The translations under genes were made by a program, and so were the position numbers. Source: a virus (Duplodnaviria > Caudoviricetes). Taken from it: DNA of 64,000 nt. The notes below the pieces were generated by a model. It was not told the origin of the DNA, ran no database searches, and saw only the letters and a program-made list of their open reading frames with translations. Location: positions 1 through 64,000 of IMG/VR virus record IMGVR_UViG_3300029288_000084; one strand, given 5' to 3'. This document shows, piece by piece, positions 31,579 to 44,394 of the stretch (its first letter is position 1; every line of letters begins with the position of its first letter).

Positions 31579-31609
31579 ATTATAATGTATTTATATGAAA
31601 AATTTAGTA
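31579..31609 (-). promoter_or_regulatory. TACTAAAT-N17-TATAAT promoter (class II) with an embedded TATAAATA
   Basis: exact motif; upstream of the uvsX-41 string. Confidence 0.8.
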
Positions 31610-32545
31610 AAACAATGAATCAATTTTCATAGTTTTATCATTTAAAGCTACAATTATATCATAATTGCAAGCTTTCGTTAAAATATTGACGGCTGACAAG
31701 AAACTCTTTTCATATTGCACATCGTAATCAATGTATTGATCAAAATTGAATTCTTTTGGTAATTTGTCTAAAAATGCTATAATATTTTCATTGTTATTTA
31801 AATTTGGCACTTTCAAATATAAGAATTTAATTCGATCACCCGAATAGATTTTTTTGTATTTATTTGTTAAATTTAACCTATCGAGATGGAAATTATATAA
31901 TAAAGCACCGCGAACATGAATTGGTGTTCCTTTTGTAAAAATTGTTTTACTATCAAAATATTTTTCGATATCTGAAATAGATCTCGGAAATGCCATGTCT
32001 TCTGGCTTAAAATTTACAAATTCTTTTTGATAATCTTTAACTACTTGCATTAATTTTTCATTATTATTATCCAAAACAATACCAACTACTTCACGCAATT
32101 TTTCTCGAACAATTTTTGGAGTTGATGTTCGAACTATTTCGATTCCTGTGATTTTGAGTTTTGGCTCATCGTAAACTTTATTTTCATCCATCCATTTTCG
32201 AACAACATATTTTTTCATTGAACACCAGAGACCAACATCTCCGATGATTTCTCGTTTCATTTCGTAAGTATTCTTGAAAACATTCAACTTGAGTGATAAA
32301 GCTTGAAGACTTTTTTCTATCTCTTTCTCTACAACAGTTTCACTAAATTTGTTAATAGCTTTAATTGCTTGCTGTGTTGTTAATTCTTTTGGACTTTGCT
32401 TAATTAATTTATCACAACAAATGTAAACTGAATTATGCAATAAAATATCATTACCAAAGAAATTATGATTATCTTCTACTTCAATATCATAAACATCTTG
32501 TTCTTGTATTCCTAAATCAATAACTTCAAGGGTGGATTGATTCAT
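31604..32545 (-). CDS. 43: DNA polymerase gp43 C-terminal half, preceded by the split-intein C fragment
   Basis: VYDIEVEDNHNFFGNDILLHN|SVYI; MKRE.I, KKY, K.TGIE.VRTSTP, KGTPIHVRGAL.YN, IDYD.QY.KSF. Confidence 0.93.
   Translation of the reverse strand: MNQSTLEVIDLGIQEQDVYDIEVEDNHNFFGNDILLHNSVYICCDKLIKQSPKELTTQQAIKAINKFSETVVEKEIEKSLQALSLKLNVFKNTYEMKREIIGDVGLWCSMKKYVVRKWMDENKVYDEPKLKITGIEIVRTSTPKIVREKLREVVGIVLDNNNEKLMQVVKDYQKEFVNFKPEDMAFPRSISDIEKYFDSKTIFTKGTPIHVRGALLYNFHLDRLNLTNKYKKIYSGDRIKFLYLKVPNLNNNENIIAFLDKLPKEFNFDQYIDYDVQYEKSFLSAVNILTKACNYDIIVALNDKTMKIDSLFY
32432..32545 (-). mobile_element. split intein C-fragment (38 aa)
   Basis: block F VYDIEV and block G HN followed by +1 Ser. Confidence 0.92.
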
Positions 32546-33647
32546 TTAATTTCTCCTTTTGAATTTTAATATAATCAACTAAAAAATTTAGTATTTCTAA
32601 TTTATTATTTTTCCAATCATATTCCCAAACATATAAATATTTAAATCCTCTGTTTACAAGACATAATTTTTTATTTTCATCATATTTCCAAATATCATCT
32701 ACATTATAACTTTTTTTAAAAAAACTAATGATGTCATTTTTACTATAAAATCTTGGGTTTGCATGATAATAATCACCATTAAATTCTATACAAATTTTTA
32801 AATCACTTATTACAAAATCATACTTATAATATTTTTTATTTATTAAATCACAAGATCCAAATTCTGTTGTTTTCGGTACAAAATATACTTTTTCAACATT
32901 AACAATGTCTTTTATTTTTTCAAAAAGAATAGAAGAAAATTCTTTTTGTATTTTTGATACACCGCTACTAGTTTTTTGTATTCTTTTAAAAAATTGTTTT
33001 ATGCCTTCCTCTTCTCCTAATCTATTTATATAATTATCTAATGTAACACCCTTTAATATATTTATCTCATTACATATTTTTAGTCCTTCTATTTTCCCAT
33101 GCTGATCTATAAAATACTGTTTAGATTTCGTATATGCTTGATTTTTTCTATACTGATCCCATTTAATTTTTCCTTCTTTTTCACCATATCTCTTAACAAA
33201 ATTTTCTAGCGTACTCGATCTTTTTTTATTGTAGTAAACAAAATCTTCTTTCGACATTCCATATTTTTTATTTTTATATTCGAATGTATTTGTTTCTGCC
33301 TGTTTCTTTCTATAACTTTCCCATTTTATTTTTCCTTCTTCATTACCATATTTTTTAACAAAATTTTCTAATGTAATTACTCTTGCTTGTTTTATTTCAT
33401 TATACAATATTTCAGGTAAATTAAGTAATTCAATATAATCTTTATTAATTATATTAGGTGATAATGGTAGCCTATTATATTTTTTTAAAAAACATTTTAC
33501 ACATTTAACTCTGTAGTAATATTTTTCTTTGTAAATAAAAGGTATATTATAAAACCAGCTTGTTTTATAATCTTTTTTATTTCTAAATATAGTAAAAAAA
33601 TCTTCAATATCTTGACCACATATTTGACATTTTCTTTTAGTTTCCAT
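32526..33647 (-). mobile_element. free-standing Vsr-like PD-(D/E)xK homing endonuclease inside the fractured gp43
   Basis: three TLENF..RYG..EG..KW repeats; YDFVISDLKICIEFNGDYYHANP...GFKYLYVWE. Confidence 0.85.
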
Positions 33648-33671
33648 AATTTTATATATAAAGATACCTAC

Positions 33672-35777
33672 TCAAATATATATTAATTTATCACTTAGTA
33701 AAATTTCCTTTGGTTTAACTGATATTATAATATCATTTCGATTTACGATAATTGAATGGTCTTCTGTTATTTCAACTTCTTTTCCGTTGTATTTTACTAA
33801 ATACATTCGTTTATTAACTTTATGTTTCATAATATATTTTATTTTTTTTTCTTCAACTTTTCTATTATCGATATTATAAGACAAACAAGTTGTATTTCCT
33901 ATAACATGTTTTATATAATTATCTATCCCTCTAATTTCAATTATTCCAAAAAGCTGATTATACAAATCACTAATTTTAAAATTACCTTGATTTGTTTTTA
34001 CAATAGTATTAAAACCGCAGCTGTCAGTATCGTTGTAAATAATATCAATGTATTTTCCTAGTTTTGTTTTTAACCAATCAGAAACATATCTAATAACCAA
34101 TTGTCCGGTGAGTGTAATAGCAGATGCAATTCGAATGTCATAATATCTAAAATATTCATTGGCAAATGCACCATATCCTGAATTTAACAAGATTTTTAGA
34201 GCTTGCTGTTTCAAATCAAGACTTTTTACTTCAGATTCTTTTCTACCAGCTTTTATAGCCTCTTTTAATTGCTTCTTGATTTCAATTCTTTCATTATATT
34301 TTTTCTCCATAATTTCGCCAACAGTACCTTGCTTATCTCTTTTCCAAAATCTTCCATTTGGCGTATAGCAGTAATTGTACTTTTTAAGAAATTCTTGTAA
34401 TTGTTTATATACTTCGCTTGTATCATCCAATAACAAATCTACAGAAGAAAAAAGAGGGTTCAAAGCTGTATATTCACGCAACACATCAGGTGCAATAAAA
34501 TCACCAAATCGAATTGCATCTGATGGCGATAACCCAGCTTTATTGACGATTGTTTCTTTAGATAAATTGCAACCAATAATATTGTTTGGATATAGAGAAT
34601 TTGCATCATAAGCTACAACCCATTTATACAATCCGGGTTTTACTAAATTTACAAAAGCACCTGGATATTCTTGTTTCTCAGTATGTTTTTTTGTTGGTGG
34701 TATTTCAATATTTTTAATCTTTAGTGCATTGTAAATAATAACATCCCAAAGTTTTACAGGAGAAAATATGTCTCTGTATATGACTCGAGATTCATATGCA
34801 ATAGTCATAGCCAACTCAAGTAATTGTAATTTGTTATTTAGAAGTGAAATTAATTCAACATCCCAAATGTTATATTCAATATACCTTTGAGGATCCTTTT
34901 CCCAAAGTTCTTTTAAATCATATTCATCGTATTTTATTTTTTGTTTGTTCAATTCAACAAAACAGATATTGTCTAACGAATATGATTCTTGTTTTTCATA
35001 TACAAATTTCTTATACAAGTTAATGTAATCGAGAATTGGAATATAAAAATCGTAGAAATTTATTTCTTGATTTATCATCCTTATACTGGTTTGATTGACC
35101 TTGCCAACTGGGGATAATTCAGTTAATGCCCGTTCACCCAGTAATTTATAAATCCGATTTGTTAGATACGGAATATCAAAAAGATCCACATTCCAGCCAG
35201 TAATGAGATCCGGTGATAGAGTTTTAAATAAGAAAATAAACGCTTGAAGCAATTCACCTTCAGAATTCATTTTTTTGAAATTAATCTTTTCTTTATCAAT
35301 ATTGAAAGTAGCCTTTTCTTTATCAAAATCCTTTAGTGAAAGTACATAGAAATTTCCTGTTTTCAAATCCTTTATTGTAATTGCACTGATTGGATAATTT
35401 GCCTTATTAACATTTGGAAAACCTTCTTCATTCAAAACCTCAATATCAATAATAACTGTTTTTACTTGTGAGATATCATAGTATTGATCTTCTTTACCCC
35501 ATTTCGTTTGAATAAACTGATAAATTGGTGAAATATCACCATACAAAGGCATTTCATCCCGATAAGTCTTTACAAAATCATAATATTCTCGAATGGTTTT
35601 AATATGCTTATTTAAATTGATACCATTCTGTGAAATATGACCTGTGTATTCATTTGACTCAGTAAAAATTTCAGCAGGGAAGGGAATTTTATCTTTGAAT
35701 TTTTTCCCGTTTCTATAACCAAGAATTACAAGATCATTTGATAGATTGATGATGTTAGTATAAAATTCTTTTGCCAT
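33672..35777 (-). CDS. 43: DNA polymerase gp43 N-terminal half, followed by the split-intein N fragment
   Basis: DIE, TGWN..FDIPY, YN..DV exonuclease motifs; YDANSLYP, K..LNSGYG, YNDTD|S. Confidence 0.95.
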   Translation of the reverse strand: MAKEFYTNIINLSNDLVILGYRNGKKFKDKIPFPAEIFTESNEYTGHISQNGINLNKHIKTIREYYDFVKTYRDEMPLYGDISPIYQFIQTKWGKEDQYYDISQVKTVIIDIEVLNEEGFPNVNKANYPISAITIKDLKTGNFYVLSLKDFDKEKATFNIDKEKINFKKMNSEGELLQAFIFLFKTLSPDLITGWNVDLFDIPYLTNRIYKLLGERALTELSPVGKVNQTSIRMINQEINFYDFYIPILDYINLYKKFVYEKQESYSLDNICFVELNKQKIKYDEYDLKELWEKDPQRYIEYNIWDVELISLLNNKLQLLELAMTIAYESRVIYRDIFSPVKLWDVIIYNALKIKNIEIPPTKKHTEKQEYPGAFVNLVKPGLYKWVVAYDANSLYPNNIIGCNLSKETIVNKAGLSPSDAIRFGDFIAPDVLREYTALNPLFSSVDLLLDDTSEVYKQLQEFLKKYNYCYTPNGRFWKRDKQGTVGEIMEKKYNERIEIKKQLKEAIKAGRKESEVKSLDLKQQALKILLNSGYGAFANEYFRYYDIRIASAITLTGQLVIRYVSDWLKTKLGKYIDIIYNDTDSCGFNTIVKTNQGNFKISDLYNQLFGIIEIRGIDNYIKHVIGNTTCLSYNIDNRKVEEKKIKYIMKHKVNKRMYLVKYNGKEVEITEDHSIIVNRNDIIISVKPKEILLSDKLIYI
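33675..34022 (-). mobile_element. split intein N-fragment (116 aa, Ser1)
   Basis: starts SCGFNTIV after YNDTD; block B ITEDHS. Confidence 0.9.
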
Positions 35778-35817: not shown

Positions 35818-37018
35818 AATCAAACAAACTTCCTAAGGTTGGTTCTTCAGTCTTTACATTAAACTTTCTAAAATATTCTTTGTGATTATATAATACAGAT
35901 AAAGGTTCATTCGAATCAAATACCTTATCAATAACCTGGAATGCTAACATTGTATCACTTGGAAAATAACTATCCATTACTTCAGTACTACCTAAGTTGA
36001 TAATATTTTTTATCTCATATTCATTTCCAATGAGCTGATACATATTGTGAAGGCCCAAAATAGCATAAAAAAGAGAATTGAATGAATCTTTCTCTTTGTT
36101 CTTCAGATCGAAAATATCCCTCCATTTCAAAAGTTTGCATACAGGACAGATACAAGGTAAATTGGTATCCAAATTCCAATCTGGTTGAATAACAGTTGAT
36201 GATGAGAGGTGAACAAAATTCTTCTTAATAGTATATCTTCCATAAGATGCACTCATAAAAGGTGAGGATGAGTCATATGTTAATTTTACATCCAATTGAC
36301 GTTGATTTAATTTTCTCTGAATGTAAGCAAGAATTGGAATAATCTCCATAGATGAAACACCAAGAAAATGAAATAATTTTCTCCCATCTTTTTTTGAATA
36401 TCGTTCTACCTCGCCTTTTGAATACAGATAAAAGAAAGCAAAGATTGTTGTAAAAGCACTACGAGATGTAGCTGAACCAATTCCCCAGCCACCAGGAAAA
36501 TCAAAATTGTGAACTTTGCCATACCATTCTTCAAAATGATCAAAATTTCGTCCTTGAAGAACATTGAGAAATTGTGTTTTTCCTTTTTGATTTTTTTCAA
36601 AGAATGTCATATTATTAACAGTTTTTTGAAGATGATCGTTGAATTTTTCTTCTAAATTCATCTGACTATCAATGAAAGGCGGTAAATCTAGATTGACAGC
36701 ATAGTTAGAATTATTCTCTAGCCAATTGAAGATTTGTTCAACTATATCTGGTGTGTATTTAATAGCACCTGTGGCTATTTGATATCCACCAGAATCACCT
36801 AAAACTATTTTTTTCTCATCTACAAAATCATATCCATATTCTGTTTTCGAATCCTTCTTATAGTTGTGTCCAGCTGAAATAAGAAGGTATGGGTAATTGA
36901 AAACATTATCAGGATGAGTTTGATAAAATTTTAGACTTTTACCCTTGATGTTATACTTTTTACTTTCACCACCAAGAGGACCTAGAGAAATTGCAGGAAT
37001 ATAAGATATTTGGTTCAC
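35816..37018 (-). CDS. dpdA: DpdA-like / TGT-fold 7-deazaguanine transglycosylase
   Basis: [31 protein letters not shown], CxCxxC...LHN; located between queF and gp43. Confidence 0.82.
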
Positions 37019-38493
37019 ATGTGCCTCGTGTGCAAATTAGCTGGCATTGCTTTAAAATGCTCTGGAACGTCAAAATACAACCTTTTGTGTTCAGCTACAG
37101 TTACAATGCTAATTCCACCACGAGGTACAAAATCACCTACAACACGAATCCAAAAAGGATCCATAACCTGTGTCAAATCTTTACAAATGATATTTGTACA
37201 ATCTTCATGGAAATCTCCATGATTGCGAAAAGAAAATAAATATAGTTTCAAAGACTTAGATTCAACCATATCTATTCTGGGAATATATCGAATGTACATT
37301 GTTGCAAAATCTGGTTGGCCCGTGCGGGGACAATTATGAACTACAATACCATTTGCAAAATAACACTCTGTATCTTCTACTTCCATATTATATACATCTG
37401 CATAACCAGTTTTTTGTACTTCTATTACTTTGTGATTTAGAGATTGTAATTGAATATTTTTCCTTAATTGTTTAGATTCTAAAGATGTTCGAACTTTGCC
37501 ACCACTTTCTTTGATCCAACTTGAAATAGTAGTTGTATCTACATTGAAATATTTAGATAATTCATAACAAGTAAAACCCTGTTCGTATAATTCTTTACAT
37601 TCTTGTCTTTTTTGATAAAATTTATCTGTTCTTTTCATAATCATACTTTCGGATTGACTTCTCAATTGAATATTATTTCTTTCAAGTCTAGTTCTAATAG
37701 TAGAACCATCACAGTTATAAATTTCACATAACTGATCTACACTAAAACCAGATACATACTGATTAATCAATACTTCATCTTTGATTGATTTATCATAACC
37801 ATATCTCAATGATTGATGATGAGAATTATGTTTTGTCAATGACATTACCTCAATATTAGAAGTATTATTGTTGTAATGATTTCCATCTTTATGGTGTACA
37901 GTACCATTCATATTAGGAAATAATGCATTGGCAATTAATTTATGTCGAGCAGTATTGCGAATATTGTCATTAGAACGTTGATCACTAATAATTCTCATCC
38001 CTGGCATTAGTTCACAAGCTTTAACCCATTTAAAATCACAAAATCCAATTTTAACAAGCACTAAATGATTTGGTGTTAATTGTATAGAGGTTTCAGTAAA
38101 TTGATTTTTTCCTTTATTGACATGTCTTGATAACATTCTTACTGTAATAATTTGAGTTTGATTTTGAGTTTTTCGAACATTATAGTATTTTTTTACAACT
38201 GGTTTTCCAATTTTTATATCGAAAGAAAAAACATAACCATTAGTGCCAACAAGTTTTTGAATTGGTACCCCTTTTGGATATTCTTTTTCATTGCAGCAAA
38301 TGTCTATTAGAGTATCACCAGTTAGACACAAACTAGTAAATTCTGGACATTTGAATTCAACTAAATATATACTTCCTTCATGTTTGTTTTTAAATGTTTC
38401 AAGCATACTCGCAGAAGGGTGATCATACGAATATTTTACCTTTTGATCTCCTAACTTAGAAACACTTCCTAACTCTTCTTGTGATCTAGACAT
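37015..38493 (-). CDS. queF: NADPH-dependent preQ0 reductase QueF (160 aa after removing the intein)
   Basis: CPEFTSL|[10 protein letters not shown], QueF motif [28 protein letters not shown]. Confidence 0.93.
37333..38328 (-). mobile_element. contiguous intein (332 aa) with HNH endonuclease in queF
   Basis: CLTGDT start, LTPNH block B, VHHKDGN..NN..SN HNH, HTH repeats, [15 protein letters not shown]|C. Confidence 0.93.
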
Positions 38494-39169
38494 TTTTAAC
38501 TCCTTGATACATCATTATATACGATCTTTCATAAGTATTTAGTAAAGCAAATTGATGTTCTGTACTTCTTTGTAGAAAGTCTAATACATCAATAGCATGT
38601 TTAATAATAACAGTATCATATCCAAAATATTCAGCAATATCAGAAAATTCTCTTAGTAAATCCTTATCACGGTTCAAATCCTTATGTTCAGACCAAGAAC
38701 ATAAGATTCCTTTTGTTCCATCTATTTTTTTCAAATGATGTGGTCTAGAAAGTAACATTCGCGTTAGCAAAACTTTATCTTTGTAAATACGAACCTTAAT
38801 AGGTTCAAAATCACATAAGAAAGGGTGAACACCATGAATTTCACACCTGCCATCGTGATTGAGGAAAATACATTTCTTAAGATTTTTTGAAATTTTTTGT
38901 TGATTTAAAGAAATGATTTTTTTTGGGAATGGAGTATTATTTACATCTAGTACATCAAATAAACTTACCAATTCAGGAAATTGTTTTTGAAATTTACTCC
39001 ATCTTTCACCTGGATAATAATCAAGAGAAACAGGAACACAACAAGCACCACACTTATCAAGGCAATTTTGTTTTCTCAAAAACATTCGACTAAGTAAAAT
39101 ATCTTTATTAATACTTGGTTGTAGATTTATGATATAGTGAATCAATTTAAATGTTGATTGATAATCCAT
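38486..39169 (-). CDS. CxxxCxxCC Fe-S/Zn protein (YkgJ/FliB-methylase-like)
   Basis: CLDKCGACC...CIFL..DGRCEIH..HP..C...P. Confidence 0.75.
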
Positions 39170-39177
39170 ATCTCACC

Positions 39178-40068
39178 TCAGTAATTTATGTAGCGATACA
39201 AATATATTGTTTCGTGTGGCCAATGCTTTTTGTAATTTTTTAATTGCTTATTCAAAACAAAACCATAGTTGAAATACTTTATTCCTCTTTTTCTCAATTC
39301 ATCAAAAAACATCAATCGCGAACCTTCAGAATAATTACTTGGAAATTCCCAAAATAAGTTGAAACTACTCATAGCAAAAGCACAATCGCCCCAGATGTAA
39401 TCACATTCAACACTGAAGGGTTGTTCATTTACTATACCAAGTTTGATATGTGCAGGGAAAAAATTATTGTAAAACAAAATATATTCTTCAATCAAATTCC
39501 AATACTTAGCACCACCAAATGTCATTCTAAAAGTATTTTCATCTGCCAATTTAGTTTCAACCCAACGAGTATGAATATCTTTTGCAATTTGTGTATTATC
39601 TGATGTTAATTCCTCTGATCGAAAATAATTTTTTTTCATAAGATTAACTGGGTAATTTAATTTTCGTGCTCTATCTTTTGCATTTTCATAGTTACTTGGA
39701 TTAAAAATACCGTCAATGTTGTAAATAAACTCTTCTACTTTTGATTTTTTAAATCCAGGAATATTGCCTAAATCTTGAATAGAAAGTAATTCTGATTTAC
39801 TTTTGACTAGAGAAAAGTCAAATTGCTTATTTGGATCGTAGTAAATCAATCGATTTTTCTTTGAATCAAGTATACATATCAGACCATCTAGGATTACAAC
39901 CTTGTTTGTACAAAGTAGCTTTCTAAAATTGTAATATCCAAATAAAACGGGAAATGCCATTCCATGAACATGAAATACTGGATAAGTATTTTTTAATTGA
40001 TCAAAACTTATTTTATTTTGATGCTGATTTAGAAACTTTTGCATTATTAAATTTTCTCCAATATTCAA
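39178..40068 (-). CDS. DUF2156/LPG_synthase_C-like (tRNA-dependent aminoacyl-transferase, GNAT fold) protein
   Basis: EEFIY..., EELTSDN..AKDIHTRW.ETK, GIVNEQP, GIKYFNYG...LKNYKKHWP parallel the DUF2156 motifs DYVY, EPLT.EN..W, IRVDG, GYKYIN...GLRKAKLSY.P (by eye). Confidence 0.6.
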   Translation of the reverse strand: MNIGENLIMQKFLNQHQNKISFDQLKNTYPVFHVHGMAFPVLFGYYNFRKLLCTNKVVILDGLICILDSKKNRLIYYDPNKQFDFSLVKSKSELLSIQDLGNIPGFKKSKVEEFIYNIDGIFNPSNYENAKDRARKLNYPVNLMKKNYFRSEELTSDNTQIAKDIHTRWVETKLADENTFRMTFGGAKYWNLIEEYILFYNNFFPAHIKLGIVNEQPFSVECDYIWGDCAFAMSSFNLFWEFPSNYSEGSRLMFFDELRKRGIKYFNYGFVLNKQLKNYKKHWPHETIYLYRYINY

Positions 40069-40747
40069 CAGCTATATTCCACTCTGCATCGGTTAGTAAA
40101 GGATCCTTTACATTATTCAAATAAAATGCTTCGGTACGTTCAGTACAAGTTCCGCATTTTAAACATGGCCTTGTTTTTCCATTGTAACAAGAATATGTTG
40201 TTGCATAAGGAACATCAATTTTTAAACCATATTTGACAATATCTTCTTTTCTCATCTGTTCAAATGGTGCAATAAACTTGATTTTTTTATATGTACCTAA
40301 TTTGATAGCCTTACTCATTGCTACATTAAATTCTTTACGGCAATCAGGATAAATAGATACATCTCCCAAGTGGCTTCCTAAAATAATATCCCCAATTCCT
40401 CTTGATTCAGCATATCCAGCAGCTATTGCAAGTAAAATACCATTTCTAAAAGGCACAACTGTTGATTTCATAGATTCATCTGAATACATTCCTTCAGGAA
40501 TTTGTTCGCCACTATTGCTAAGCAAAGATGAATTAAAGTTTGCGAAAATTTTCCTAACATCAAAAATATTATGATTAGTACATGTTTGTTTGGTTACATA
40601 TTTAGCCCCTTTTATTTCAGCACTATTGTGTTTAGAACCATAGTTGAAACTAACAGCAGCAACATAGCTATATTTTTTAATACTCCAATATAAAGCTGTT
40701 GTTGAATCTAAACCACCAGATAGTAAAACTAAAGCTGTACTTTTCAT
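40013..40747 (-). CDS. queC: 7-cyano-7-deazaguanine synthase QueC
   Basis: LLSGGLDST, FNYGSKH, VPFRNGI, YPDCR, TYSCY..PC..C.TC..R. Confidence 0.96.
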   Translation of the reverse strand: MKSTALVLLSGGLDSTTALYWSIKKYSYVAAVSFNYGSKHNSAEIKGAKYVTKQTCTNHNIFDVRKIFANFNSSLLSNSGEQIPEGMYSDESMKSTVVPFRNGILLAIAAGYAESRGIGDIILGSHLGDVSIYPDCRKEFNVAMSKAIKLGTYKKIKFIAPFEQMRKEDIVKYGLKIDVPYATTYSCYNGKTRPCLKCGTCTERTEAFYLNNVKDPLLTDAEWNIAVEYWRKFNNAKVSKSASK

Positions 40748-40759
40748 ATTTACCTCACT

Positions 40760-41932
40760 TTATCTTTTTAAATTTGAAAATTCAACTAATTTAAAAAATT
40801 CCTGTTTTGCTGAATCATCTGTTTCAAAAACACCATAAACAGAACTAGTTGTAACTTTGGCATCTGGATCATTTACTCCTCGCATAGCCATACACATATG
40901 CCTCCCTTCTACTATAGCAATAGCACCCTTTGCTTTAATTTTTTGAAATATATTTACTAAATCTTGAGTAAAAGACTCTTGTAATATTGGTTGTTTAGCT
41001 AATAATTTTGCAACTCTTGTTAATTTTGAAATACCTAAATATTTTTCACCTGGAATATATCCCAATTTTATCCAATATTCAACAGGTAATAAATGATGTG
41101 GACACATAGAAAAACAATGAATATTAGATGTAATAATACCTTCATAATGTGATGGGAACCCTGTTGATAGTATACTATCAATTTCTTCTTTTGAATTTAT
41201 CCCTTCAAAAATTTCATAGTAAGCCCTAGCAACTCTTTTAGGTGTATCTTTGAAATTTTCATCATTTACATTTAACCCAAATTCATCTTTTAATCCTTCT
41301 AAAATCAATATAGCTGCTTTTTCTATTTTAGAAATACCAGACCATTTACCTCTTTTATTTTCGTTGTGTATTTTGCTATGACAACTCTTACAAAGTACCA
41401 TAAGATTTTCTATTTTGTGATTTCCTCCCAACCTGGTATCATAATTTTTAAAATCAATATGATGTACCGTTAAGTTTTTAATTGAACCACAACGTTGACA
41501 CTCTTTTCCATAATACTCAAGTGCTCTTTCTTTGTAAGTTTTCATTTCAATATCACTACTGTGTTGTTTAAATTTTGCATTTTTATTGTTTTCTCTTTCT
41601 TGATCAGTAACAACATGGTTTTTTCTACTTTGTCTACGAATATCTCTTTGATTACTATCTTTCATTTGATTTACTGTACTATTTTTTCTAGATTCTTTTA
41701 ATTCTTTAGCTTTTTCTTCACCAAATCGTTGTTCGTAAGTAACCCCCTTTGAAAATTTAACTCTTTTTTCAATTGACAATTTACTTGTAAGTTCAGCATT
41801 AGGAAATTGATTTAAATATTCATCAATGCTTATTTGATGTTCATTCCACAAATGTGTATTAGTAATAATGTGAAATTTTTTGTGACATATATTACATTCA
41901 ACATAAGAACTGTCTACTATTTCTTCTGGCAT
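40760..41932 (-). CDS. folE: GTP cyclohydrolase I FolE with in-frame N-terminal C2H2 + HNH endonuclease fusion
   Basis: aa ~201-390: DTPKRVARAY, SMCPHHLLP, GISKL.R, LQE, HMCMAMRGV; aa 145-190: CQRCG..VHHID..NH..ENL..LC..CH. Confidence 0.9.
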   Translation of the reverse strand: MPEEIVDSSYVECNICHKKFHIITNTHLWNEHQISIDEYLNQFPNAELTSKLSIEKRVKFSKGVTYEQRFGEEKAKELKESRKNSTVNQMKDSNQRDIRRQSRKNHVVTDQERENNKNAKFKQHSSDIEMKTYKERALEYYGKECQRCGSIKNLTVHHIDFKNYDTRLGGNHKIENLMVLCKSCHSKIHNENKRGKWSGISKIEKAAILILEGLKDEFGLNVNDENFKDTPKRVARAYYEIFEGINSKEEIDSILSTGFPSHYEGIITSNIHCFSMCPHHLLPVEYWIKLGYIPGEKYLGISKLTRVAKLLAKQPILQESFTQDLVNIFQKIKAKGAIAIVEGRHMCMAMRGVNDPDAKVTTSSVYGVFETDDSAKQEFFKLVEFSNLKR

Positions 41933-41952
41933 TTGAACTCCTTGTTTTCTTA

Positions 41953-41983
41953 ATTATAATATAAATTTAACAATTATTTAGTA
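41953..41983 (-). promoter_or_regulatory. TACTAAAT-N17-TATAAT promoter (class II) upstream of folE-queC-queF-dpdA
   Basis: exact motif. Confidence 0.8.
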
Positions 41984-42141
41984 TTTTTCTTTGCTATTTT
42001 TTCAGCTAATACATGTCCAATTGGGTAGTGGTGATGTTCCCAATTTGTTCCATTCCATTTCTAACGTTCGCTTGAAATATCACAAATTTCCTTACAAACA
42101 GAACATCTGTAATTTTTTGCATCGTGTATAAATTTTATCAA
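41974..42141 (-). pseudogene. short ORF with an in-frame TAG
   Basis: ...YRCSVCKEICDISSER*KWNGTNWEHHHYPIGHVLAEK; TAG at 42061-42063. Confidence 0.4.
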
Positions 42142-42142
42142 A

Positions 42143-42496
42143 TTAGTCTTTTTTGTTTTTTGCATATAAAATTGCTTCTAACAAGATCAAATAATTAATT
42201 GTATCACCAATCTTTTCATCAATCAATTCTCTAGGATATATTTTATCTGGATTTTTCACCATCTTACGAACTGAAACATATTGTTTAAGCATATATCCCC
42301 ACAAAACATTTTCTGGTGTTGAATCATCCAGTTTTGCACCAGTTCGAAAATTCAAAAGAAAATCATCATCGACAGCATACTCTTTATGCTTACCTGCTAA
42401 AACTTTTCTGATTAATTCAATTCTTCGGTCTAGAACTTCTACTTTAAATTCATCAGTTGTCAATTTTTTCATTTCTATTTTTTCGACTGGGTTCAT
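42143..42496 (-). CDS. all-alpha MazG-like / nucleotide-modification-associated protein (DUF1599-like)
   Basis: K.KEYA..D.L.NF, WGY..K, IDEKIGD.INYLILL. Confidence 0.6.
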   Translation of the reverse strand: MNPVEKIEMKKLTTDEFKVEVLDRRIELIRKVLAGKHKEYAVDDDFLLNFRTGAKLDDSTPENVLWGYMLKQYVSVRKMVKNPDKIYPRELIDEKIGDTINYLILLEAILYAKNKKD

Positions 42497-42498
42497 GT

Positions 42499-42741
42499 TT
42501 AATCCATTTTTGCAATTGCAATACCATTCGGACTGCCTACAACTAAAAATTTATTATTTGTCTTCACATCTTTAACAATAGTATAGTTTCTAAGTGAATC
42601 ACTCATTCTGTAAATTATTGTGAGTTGTTCTGGATTAGCAGCAATAGCATCTTTTGTTGTAATGGTTGTTATGACAAGAAGTACTATAAACATTAAAATC
42701 GCAAAACATACAAAAGTACCTGCAACAGTTATTTTTTTCAT
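42499..42741 (-). CDS. small exported / membrane-anchored protein
   Basis: signal-like N-terminus. Confidence 0.5.
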   Translation of the reverse strand: MKKITVAGTFVCFAILMFIVLLVITTITTKDAIAANPEQLTIIYRMSDSLRNYTIVKDVKTNNKFLVVGSPNGIAIAKMD

Positions 42742-43142
42742 TTTACTTCTCCATTTACTTTATTTTTTGTCCAATCTCTTTGTTTTACTTTTAACCAAGT
42801 TTTATCAATTGCATCTTGTAAATTATAACCATTTCTCCAACAATAATCTGCTAAGTAAATTACAATATCAGCAATTGCATCTTCTGCTTTTTCTCTATGG
42901 TTTTGATCTGTTCTAATTCCTTGTTCAAGTTTTAAATGTGAATGACAGAGTTCTCCAATTTCTTCTGTTGCACCTAACAGTGGCTGATAAGGTTTTGCAT
43001 TAGGAAAATTTCTTGTACTCCATTTTTGAACTTCTTCTTGCAATTGTTGTAGATCAATATTACTGAATCTAGAGGAAGGTGGGTTACCTTTTGGCATTTT
43101 TCTAGTATTACAAATCTTACCAGAAGAATCGTTTGTTGACAT
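42738..43142 (-). CDS. MazG-like nucleotide pyrophosphohydrolase
   Basis: EEIGEL...EDAIADIVIYL EXXE/EXXD motifs. Confidence 0.8.
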   Translation of the reverse strand: MSTNDSSGKICNTRKMPKGNPPSSRFSNIDLQQLQEEVQKWSTRNFPNAKPYQPLLGATEEIGELCHSHLKLEQGIRTDQNHREKAEDAIADIVIYLADYCWRNGYNLQDAIDKTWLKVKQRDWTKNKVNGEVK

Positions 43143-43895
43143 TTAAACCCCCATTTTACTTCCATAAACTAAAACATGAAGACGCGGACTAATAGTAAAA
43201 GGAAATTGGATTGCCCTAGAATTCATTGATAAAATATGAATTCCATTTTTAATAGTTTGTTCATCTGTTCCCATTGGCATGAGATAAATTGGATATAATG
43301 AATTAAACCATCTATCATAATTTTTTTCTCTAAATATTTTAACCTTATTCACAAAATCTTCAATTTCATGAATATCATGACCAAGATTAAAATATGTGCA
43401 ATCAACAACAAATTTCAAACATATATCCAAACCCTTCATTAAACTAGTCGCAACATTAGCAACTAAATTATTGATGTATTCTTCTGTTTGAATATTTCCT
43501 GAATTCAGTAACTTGGGAGATACATTAAATAAAGTGTTTTTAAAATCGGGCAAAACTATAGTTCCATTTGTTTCAATTTCAATTTTCATCTTATACAAAT
43601 AATTATGTTCAAATTCTTCAAGAAAATCTTTTTGTAAAAGAGGTTCTCCACCTGTAAAAACAACATGATCAACACCAAATTCTAAAATCTCTTTGGTGAG
43701 CTCATCATAAGTCATTTTTTTAATATCTACATTTCTGTATGCGGCTTCTTCCATTTTTGTTGAATATTTGGAATCGCAGAAAGTACAATTATTATTGCAA
43801 CCGTAAAATCTTACAAAAACTGCTGGTTTACCAATATTAAGCCCCTCACCTTGAAAACTCTTAAAAACCTCTGTAACTGCTAATACTTCATTCAT
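43143..43895 (-). CDS. queE: 7-carboxy-7-deazaguanine synthase QueE (radical SAM)
   Basis: EVFKSFQGEG, FVRFYGCNNNCTFCDS, VFTGGEPLLQ, IETNGT, VSPK, PRLH. Confidence 0.95.
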   Translation of the reverse strand: MNEVLAVTEVFKSFQGEGLNIGKPAVFVRFYGCNNNCTFCDSKYSTKMEEAAYRNVDIKKMTYDELTKEILEFGVDHVVFTGGEPLLQKDFLEEFEHNYLYKMKIEIETNGTIVLPDFKNTLFNVSPKLLNSGNIQTEEYINNLVANVATSLMKGLDICLKFVVDCTYFNLGHDIHEIEDFVNKVKIFREKNYDRWFNSLYPIYLMPMGTDEQTIKNGIHILSMNSRAIQFPFTISPRLHVLVYGSKMGV

Positions 43896-43896
43896 T

Positions 43897-44394
43897 TTAT
43901 TCCTCCACGATTACTGTATTGTTATTAGTTTCAGAAAATTCTAATCTAACGATTTTGAGATTTTGATTTATAAGCGGAAGAATTGTATTTTTTATGAAAT
44001 TAAACATAAACATTGCAATCACTTCAGAAGAAATATTTTTTTGTTTTAACACAACCAATCTAGGATTTCCATATATCATGTAATCATTATCTTTCATCTG
44101 AATTTCTACCAATTCGGGATCTACAAACTTATCAATTTCAGTATCTTCTAAACTAATGATCATAGCGTGATCAAAACAATCAATAAAATCTTTGATTGGT
44201 TTTAGTTCAGTAAAATCAATAACCATATTCAAATCATCAACTAAAGTATATTTTCTACGAATATAAACTTTTACAATACCAGAATGCCCATGAAAGCTTC
44301 TACACCGAGCTTCGGGATTGTATTTGGTAATTTTTTGATTTTCAATATGATGCGCATATTCCATCTGATATGACTTGCAAATAGTTACTTGCAT
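43897..44394 (-). CDS. queD: 6-carboxytetrahydropterin synthase QueD
   Basis: EYAH, C.SFHGHS, MVIDF, FDH, SSE.IA, ET.N. Confidence 0.9.
   Translation of the reverse strand: MQVTICKSYQMEYAHHIENQKITKYNPEARCRSFHGHSGIVKVYIRRKYTLVDDLNMVIDFTELKPIKDFIDCFDHAMIISLEDTEIDKFVDPELVEIQMKDNDYMIYGNPRLVVLKQKNISSEVIAMFMFNFIKNTILPLINQNLKIVRLEFSETNNNTVIVEE

Follow-up and report, generated by a model that had tools for sequence, protein, structure and literature searches.

What does a small, cysteine-rich protein do among the genes of a phage pathway for 7-deazaguanine synthesis? The question is raised by a 227-residue protein encoded in the window, which is the first 64 kb of the 152,932-bp IMG/VR virus record IMGVR_UViG_3300029288_000084, a record estimated to be about 85% complete. 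The window has a G+C content of 29%, and the phage is uncultivated, known only from metagenomes of landfill and groundwater sampled in several studies. The gene is probably an orthologue of dpdM, whose product is the phage dPreQ1 N-methyltransferase. The DpdM family is already known, and the window gene is a divergent addition to it; what is unusual is its neighbours.

Identity of the eight-cysteine protein

A first-pass annotation of this locus reported the motif CLDKCGACC, further cysteines after it, and an overlap with the start of queF. All of these are present where they had been placed. The same annotation set the gene between an acyltransferase-like gene and queF. An open reading frame (ORF) of 288 or 296 residues does lie upstream, and a queF containing an intein lies downstream. 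The start of queF is at 38493, and its opening codons contain the stop codon of dpdM, TAG (38486-38488). The protein has no cysteine beyond the eight conserved ones, and a protein search finds it as a single copy in the phage's own genome.

Membership of the YkgJ/FliB-type CxxCxxCC family, also claimed at that stage, is borne out by Pfam. The protein matches PF03692 over residues 36-124 with 26.3 bits against a curated cut-off of 23 (E 1.2e-5). A six-frame search of the phage genome with PF03692 missed the gene, which hmmscan detects when given the protein. The protein also matches phrog_16018 (E 4.8e-33). A scan against NCBIfam gave no relevant match at E <= 0.1, and a sequence search of the PDB returned chance matches to VEGF and R354 alone (E > 0.09).

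Evidence for a closer relationship is provided by a tblastn search of 50,697 phage records (2.3 Gb). The closest match is CEPG_00054 of Cellulophaga phage phiSM, with 38% identity and an E value of 2e-28. The alignment spans residues 21-206, or 82% of the query, and lies at phiSM 41490-42038, which is the CEPG_00054 gene. CEPG_00054 (YP_007675730.1) has been named DpdM, a dPreQ1 methyltransferase, and its product base, mdPreQ1, was found in phiSM DNA (Cui et al., NAR 2023, PMC10516641). The next matches are gp4 of Mycobacterium phage Knocker and gp55 of Pseudanabaena phage Pan1, and each of these genes is flanked by DpdA/TGT (guanine transglycosylase) and que genes.

More distant relatives were collected with an exhaustive phmmer search, which was used in place of a word-based homologue search that had recovered DpdM itself alone. 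It found 246 relatives at E <= 1e-3 among 1.84 billion representatives, and 80 of these were used for a family alignment and profile. All but one of the 80 pass PF03692. The first-pass annotation had proposed a profile comparison with both PF03692 and DpdM. The family profile aligns with the DpdM of phage VH7D over 211 columns (hhalign probability 100%, E 2e-43). Its alignment with E. coli YkgJ is confined to a 71-column cysteine core (probability 83%, E 8.5e-6). The 2023 paper assigned DpdM to PF11307 (DUF3109) by means of HHpred (PMC10516641). With hmmscan, neither the window protein nor any of the 80 relatives matched that family at E <= 0.01; HHpred is the more sensitive method, so that a relationship may still exist.

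The cysteines provide a further test of the relationship. In phiSM DpdM, C34, C38 and C41 together with C150 have been assigned to one proposed metal site, and C42, C92, C102 and C112 to a second (PMC10516641). Window residues C36, C40, C43 and C157 align with the first set, and C44, C100, C109 and C119 align with the second. The VH7D equivalents of the eight window cysteines are, in order, C45, C49, C52, C53, C120, C129, C146 and C222. Across the 80 relatives six cysteines are invariant, namely those of the CxxxCxxCC motif together with C109 and C119, and the other two (C100 and C157) are at least 90% conserved. Relatives at 46-52% identity retain all eight. Next to the first cysteine, the window protein has leucine (L37) where the family has proline (CPxxC).

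The predicted structure leads to the same family. An AlphaFold2 model built from the 80-sequence alignment has a mean predicted local distance difference test score (pLDDT) of 90.7 and a predicted template-modelling score of 0.88. When the model was compared with the BFVD database using Foldseek, the top three matches had E values of 7e-21, 5e-16 and 2e-10 and template-modelling (TM) scores of 0.79, 0.79 and 0.64. These matches, at 217, 214 and 304 residues, equal phiSM DpdM, Knocker gp4 and a VH7D-type DpdM in length. Comparison with viral models of DpdM length thus supports a DpdM fold for the predicted window structure. Foldseek searches of the PDB and of VIA-align wide gave no match to the window model. 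The DpdM fold has been described as absent from known methylases (PMC10516641), and the matches to DpdM-length models agree with that statement.

In a FastTree phylogeny the window protein pairs with the relative P0006 (support 96) and falls in the same half of the tree as phiSM DpdM, while VH7D DpdM and the Knocker and Pan1 proteins fall in the other half. The tree was rooted at its midpoint without an outgroup, and many of its forks are poorly supported.

Equivalence with DpdM, which the first-pass annotation had offered as a possibility, is supported by the top match to phiSM CEPG_00054, the intact set of eight cysteines, the profile match to VH7D DpdM, the fold match and the linkage to que and dpd genes described below. 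Family membership, ligand conservation, fold and linkage are each supported directly.

The gene cluster and its relatives

The genes around dpdM are listed in Table 1. Pfam matches for FolE, QueD, QueE, QueC as well as QueF make up a complete preQ1 pathway, and a DpdA-like gene lies beside them. By sequence, the phage genes therefore cover every step from guanosine triphosphate (GTP) to preQ1 and include a candidate DNA transglycosylase.

Table 1. Positions of dpdM, its sequence elements and the neighbouring genes in the window.
Feature	Position	Strand	Basis
Divergent DpdA-like guanine transglycosylase (candidate), 400 aa	35816..37018	-	TIGR00432, motifs, phage TGT matches
queF (preQ0 reductase), interrupted by intein	37015..38493	-	PF14489 E 3.8e-33; Intein_splicing
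332-aa HNH/HTH intein in queF, directly before catalytic Cys	37333-38328	-	Junctions EFTSL/C...VVHN/CPRTGQPD
Probable dpdM orthologue, 227 aa, YkgJ/FliB-type eight-cysteine protein	38486..39169	-	ATG start; PF03692, phrog_16018, phiSM DpdM match
dpdM/queF overlap ATGTCTAG, 8 nt	38486..38493	-	Sequence
C157 codon, eighth conserved cysteine	38699..38701	-	Equals phiSM C150, VH7D C222
Second cysteine group C100...C109...C119 (residues 100-119)	38813..38872	-	Sequence and conservation
CxxxCxxCC motif CLDKCGACC, C36, C40, C43, C44 (residues 36-44)	39038..39064	-	Sequence and conservation
Shine-Dalgarno GAGGTGA, 3 nt 5' of dpdM ATG, overlaps TGA stop of orf288	39173..39179	-	Sequence
orf288, likely start M9 of 296-aa ORF (39178-40068)	39178..40044	-	Start from homologue alignment
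queC	40013..40747	-	PF06508 E 1.3e-61
HNH-FolE fusion (GTP cyclohydrolase I)	40760..41932	-	PF01227 E 2.3e-47, residues 217-383; PF01844, residues 145-191
MazG-like pyrophosphatase (phrog_715) and phrog_6802 protein	42143-43142	-	Between folE and queE
queE	43143..43895	-	Radical_SAM E 3.1e-16; matches QueE in all loci
queD	43897..44394	-	PF01242 E 4.4e-17

The same association is found in other phages. Thirteen homologue loci were compared, three from annotated phages and ten from IMG/VR with a DpdM alignment. By the first-pass annotation, homologues lying apart from que and dpd genes would have spoken against its reading; instead, QueC, FolE and QueF were found near the DpdM homologue at all 13. 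DpdA lies within 4 kb of DpdM at 11 of the 13, nine times as the phiSM type and twice (L006 and L012) as the divergent type of the window. QueF directly adjoins DpdM at about nine of the loci, as it does in the window.

The assignment of DpdA is weaker than those of the preQ1 pathway genes, and at sequence level the gene is best described as DpdA-like. The protein matches TIGR00432 with an E value of 1.9e-8, a match that falls short of that model's cut-off. It carries the motifs DSGGYQ (residue 75) and CxCxxC (residue 289). Matches by tblastn include phage proteins labelled "TGT domain" in Vibrio and Stenotrophomonas phages, and identity to such proteins and to hypothetical proteins of the jumbo phages PA5oct, Voja-6 and Phosso is 22-28%. 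The window protein has no Pfam TGT match, and searches of the 153-kb record found neither a canonical TGT (PF01702) nor a formyltransferase of the DpdN type (PF00551). Comparison by tblastn with the DpdA1/2-type genes at other DpdM loci, the phiSM locus included, gave no match, and a PDB sequence search was empty. Genes of the window type adjoin DpdM at L006:9600-10952 and L012:6538-7878.

Several genes in and near the cluster are interrupted or extended. An intein-free queF encoding 160 residues occurs on the near-identical metagenome contig L014 (1115-1597), and in the groundwater run X2 one contig joins across exactly 996 nt of queF. Both alleles of queF therefore circulate. FolE is in frame with an N-terminal HNH endonuclease domain (residues 145-191). 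At L011:6181-7602, a 473-residue ORF matches both the intein-bearing QueF of the window (22% identity, residues 22-452) and FolE, which suggests another pathway gene interrupted by an intein or endonuclease. Outside the pathway, a family-B DNA polymerase is split over two ORFs (31604-35777, minus strand). Its N-terminal half ends in ...YNDTDSCGFNT..., a separate ORF reads ...LLHNSVYICCDK..., and a 373-residue endonuclease-like ORF (32526-33647) lies between the halves. The arrangement resembles that of a split intein located at the DTD motif.

Proposed chemistry and rival explanations

The chemistry proposed for the window protein draws on a single precedent. FliB, a flagellin lysine N-methyltransferase dependent on S-adenosylmethionine (SAM), is the only member of the superfamily with biochemistry (Wang et al. 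2021, PMC8598068). For activity it depends on a [4Fe-4S] cluster that is sensitive to oxygen and is bound through the cysteine motif, and its conserved cysteines also number eight (PMC8598068). FliB and DpdM share a primary aliphatic amine as target. Because of this, together with the iron-sulfur and SAM biochemistry of FliB, an N-methyl transfer of the same kind to the aminomethyl group of preQ1 is favoured.

For the window protein we infer the activity, the cofactors, the methyl donor and action on DNA instead of the free base as follows. The FolE, QueD, QueE and QueC proteins of the phage would produce preQ0. QueF, after splicing of its intein, would reduce preQ0 to preQ1. The divergent DpdA would then swap guanine in the phage DNA for preQ1. 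Finally, DpdM would methylate the exocyclic aminomethyl nitrogen to give 7-(methylamino)methyl-7-deazaguanine (mdPreQ1), which may help the DNA to evade host restriction. By analogy with FliB, the cysteines of CxxxCxxC most likely bind an oxygen-sensitive [4Fe-4S] cluster, a second metal site would be made up of C44, C100, C109 and C119, and the methyl group would come from SAM. The landfill and groundwater habitats would be compatible with such an oxygen-labile enzyme.

A number of observations weigh against this account. Some concern the gene itself. The pairwise alignment of the window protein with VH7D DpdM, which gave mdPreQ1 when tested in E. coli (PMC10516641), covers 90 residues (36-125) at 27% identity with an E value of 0.02. 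In the same inferred relatives, dpdM is 46-52% identical and orf288 62-75%, so that dpdM is the faster-changing of the two. Variation within the population runs the same way. Among the substitutions listed from contigs of independent samples that cover dpdM, 3 of 4 are non-synonymous in dpdM, compared with 2 of 15 for orf288 and 3 of 15 for queF. These data suggest that DpdM is less constrained than the neighbouring genes, though the variants are too few for a firm conclusion. The four dpdM differences listed are L26L, L37P, L156S and V195A. All of them leave the cysteines untouched, and the L37P variant restores the CPxxC of the family.

Other observations concern the reaction. In phiSM DNA, mdPreQ1 was measured at 212 per 10^6 nt compared with 3790 for dPreQ1, and mdPreQ1 is a minor base in all phages measured (PMC10516641). 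When DpdM was co-expressed in E. coli, dPreQ1 fell from 2765 to 0 and from 3666 to 97, a loss of 97-100%, and mdPreQ1 appeared at 9-40 per 10^6 nt (PMC10516641, Table 2). The authors who described DpdM doubted a [4Fe-4S]/SAM mechanism owing to the fourth cysteine (PMC10516641). Methylation of preQ1 already in DNA may not account for everything: with dPreQ1 lost and no matching amount of mdPreQ1 gained, DpdM could act on the free base, or a different product could be formed.

Action on the free base is the better of these alternatives, although it is still unlikely. In this model, DpdM converts free preQ1 to N-methyl-preQ1, which DpdA then inserts into DNA. Near-total loss of dPreQ1 with little mdPreQ1 is what would be expected if the pool of free base were consumed and the DpdA2 of VH7D worked poorly with the methylated base (PMC10516641). 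The position of the gene also fits: dpdM is translationally coupled to queF, the source of free preQ1, and adjoins QueF in most loci. A divergent DpdA of the kind that recurs beside DpdM in L006 and L012 could, moreover, suit another base. The authors of the DpdM study instead propose action on DNA, since their phiSM model has a groove with positive charge (PMC10516641), and the window protein shares a basic character with phiSM DpdM, its isoelectric point being 8.9. Neither point is decisive.

Another product is somewhat less likely again. Here DpdM and orf288 would carry out steps of a longer, as yet undescribed hypermodification, for example one in which the preQ1 amine receives an aminoacyl or acyl group and methylation either precedes or follows; mdPreQ1 would be an intermediate or a by-product. 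The first-pass annotation had already raised doubly modified bases made together with the neighbouring transferase, an idea that is no more than a lead. The two genes adjoin, and the stop codon of orf288 overlaps the Shine-Dalgarno sequence of dpdM. The gap in the published mass balance of DpdM (PMC10516641) fits such a scheme, and the population variants of orf288 are mostly synonymous.

The argument depends on what orf288 is. It has no match in Pfam, PHROG, NCBIfam or the phage records. Matches to HscB, obtained from Pfam at E <= 10 and from a PDB sequence search, were rejected as spurious. Four homologues with 48-75% identity were found in 5.8 billion clusters; scans of viral contigs were empty, and scans of metagenome contigs gave the near-identical 2.1-kb L014 fragment alone. 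ESM Atlas features (0.96, 193 shared) point toward clusters of LPG_synthase_C, Acetyltransf_6 and FemAB. The structural look-alikes of an ESMFold model have TM scores of 0.69-0.76 over approximately 250-276 residues and belong to PF09924, PF13480 and PF02388 clusters. The 75%-identical homologue has the same look-alikes of FemAB and MprF-C type. The models thus offer a lead: orf288 may be a tandem GNAT (GCN5-related N-acetyltransferase) protein similar to FemAB or MprF-C (DUF2156). Against this, none of the sequence-profile methods ties orf288 to any acyltransferase, and an AlphaFold2 model built from 4 sequences has a pLDDT of 39.6 and is unusable.

The pairing with DpdM can be judged in the same way. 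Homologues of both proteins occur on Logan contigs of equal size, at 21,933 bp (P0004 and P0006) and at 7,091 bp (P0170 and P0169). This suggests that the pairing is conserved in at least two relatives, a reading drawn solely from the equal contig sizes. At the 13 other DpdM loci, the 4 kb around the gene contain no homologue of orf288 on the DpdM strand, and no other neighbour that recurs there apart from the que and dpd genes. DpdM therefore does not need such a partner. A specific form of the scheme, in which preQ1 inserted into DNA by the divergent DpdA is modified at its aminomethyl nitrogen by DpdM and orf288 in successive steps, is equally doubtful. Its product would be an N-methylated and (amino)acylated 7-deazaguanine, a base without description so far, and aminoacyl-tRNA would be a possible donor.

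That the gene encodes a generic YkgJ-type metal-binding protein, placed here by chance and with a role unrelated to deazaguanine DNA modification, is very improbable: the Pfam match is modest by itself and YkgJ-family proteins are widespread and mostly uncharacterised, but the similarity to DpdMs is full-length where that to YkgJ is limited to the cysteine core, and the gene overlaps queF and is linked to QueC, FolE and QueF throughout the homologue loci.

Methylation of preQ1 by an orthologue of DpdM thus remains the preferred reading. The gene adds one more divergent member to a small family of DpdMs, for which 1.84 billion protein clusters yielded 246 representatives. Its exactly eight conserved cysteines and the anoxic habitats of the phage would fit an oxygen-sensitive iron-sulfur enzyme, which makes the protein a clean candidate for biochemistry. 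A compact DpdM together with an intein-free queF allele could help to settle where the methyl group comes from, which metals are bound, whether DNA or free base is the substrate, and how the mass balance closes. Through its coupling of DpdM with the FemAB/MprF-like orf288 and with the divergent type of DpdA, the lineage could mark a new DNA base, an idea for which the evidence is weak.

Comparison with named systems

The closest named system is that of phiSM. Its DpdM has 217 residues compared with 227 in the window, the same eight cysteines and a similar isoelectric point (8.9), and the predicted fold of the window protein matches the 217-residue BFVD model with a TM score of about 0.8 and a root-mean-square deviation of 1.7 Å. 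Both phages carry a cluster of FolE, QueD, QueE, QueC, QueF and DpdA with DpdM beside QueF. In phiSM the transglycosylase is of the DpdA1 type and is accompanied by a ParB-like gene, whereas the window has the divergent DpdA of 400 residues. The window also differs from phiSM in the intein within QueF, in the FemAB/MprF-like ORF before dpdM, and in L37 in place of the family proline.

The DpdM of VH7D (CF80_gp081, YP_009006155.1) is more distant. It shares the eight aligned cysteines, and the 304-residue BFVD model matches with a TM score of 0.64 (E 2e-10). Unlike the window protein, it has 304 residues with insertions, is acidic (isoelectric point 6.0), and does not adjoin que genes in the VH7D genome.

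Salmonella FliB belongs to the same Pfam superfamily as the window protein, according to the first-pass annotation and the Pfam name. Like DpdM, it N-methylates a primary aliphatic amine, in this case the epsilon-amine of lysine, and has a cysteine-rich motif with eight conserved cysteines (PMC8598068). It differs in that its substrate is a protein lysine, its motif is CX4CX3CC compared with CX3CX2CC in the window protein, and it is a membrane-associated oligomer (PMC8598068).

Finally, E. coli YkgJ (b0288) shares the CGACC...C...C...C core with the window protein. It has 109 residues, lacks the N-terminal helix, the context of the SLDY segment and the C-terminal half including C157, and is encoded away from que genes.

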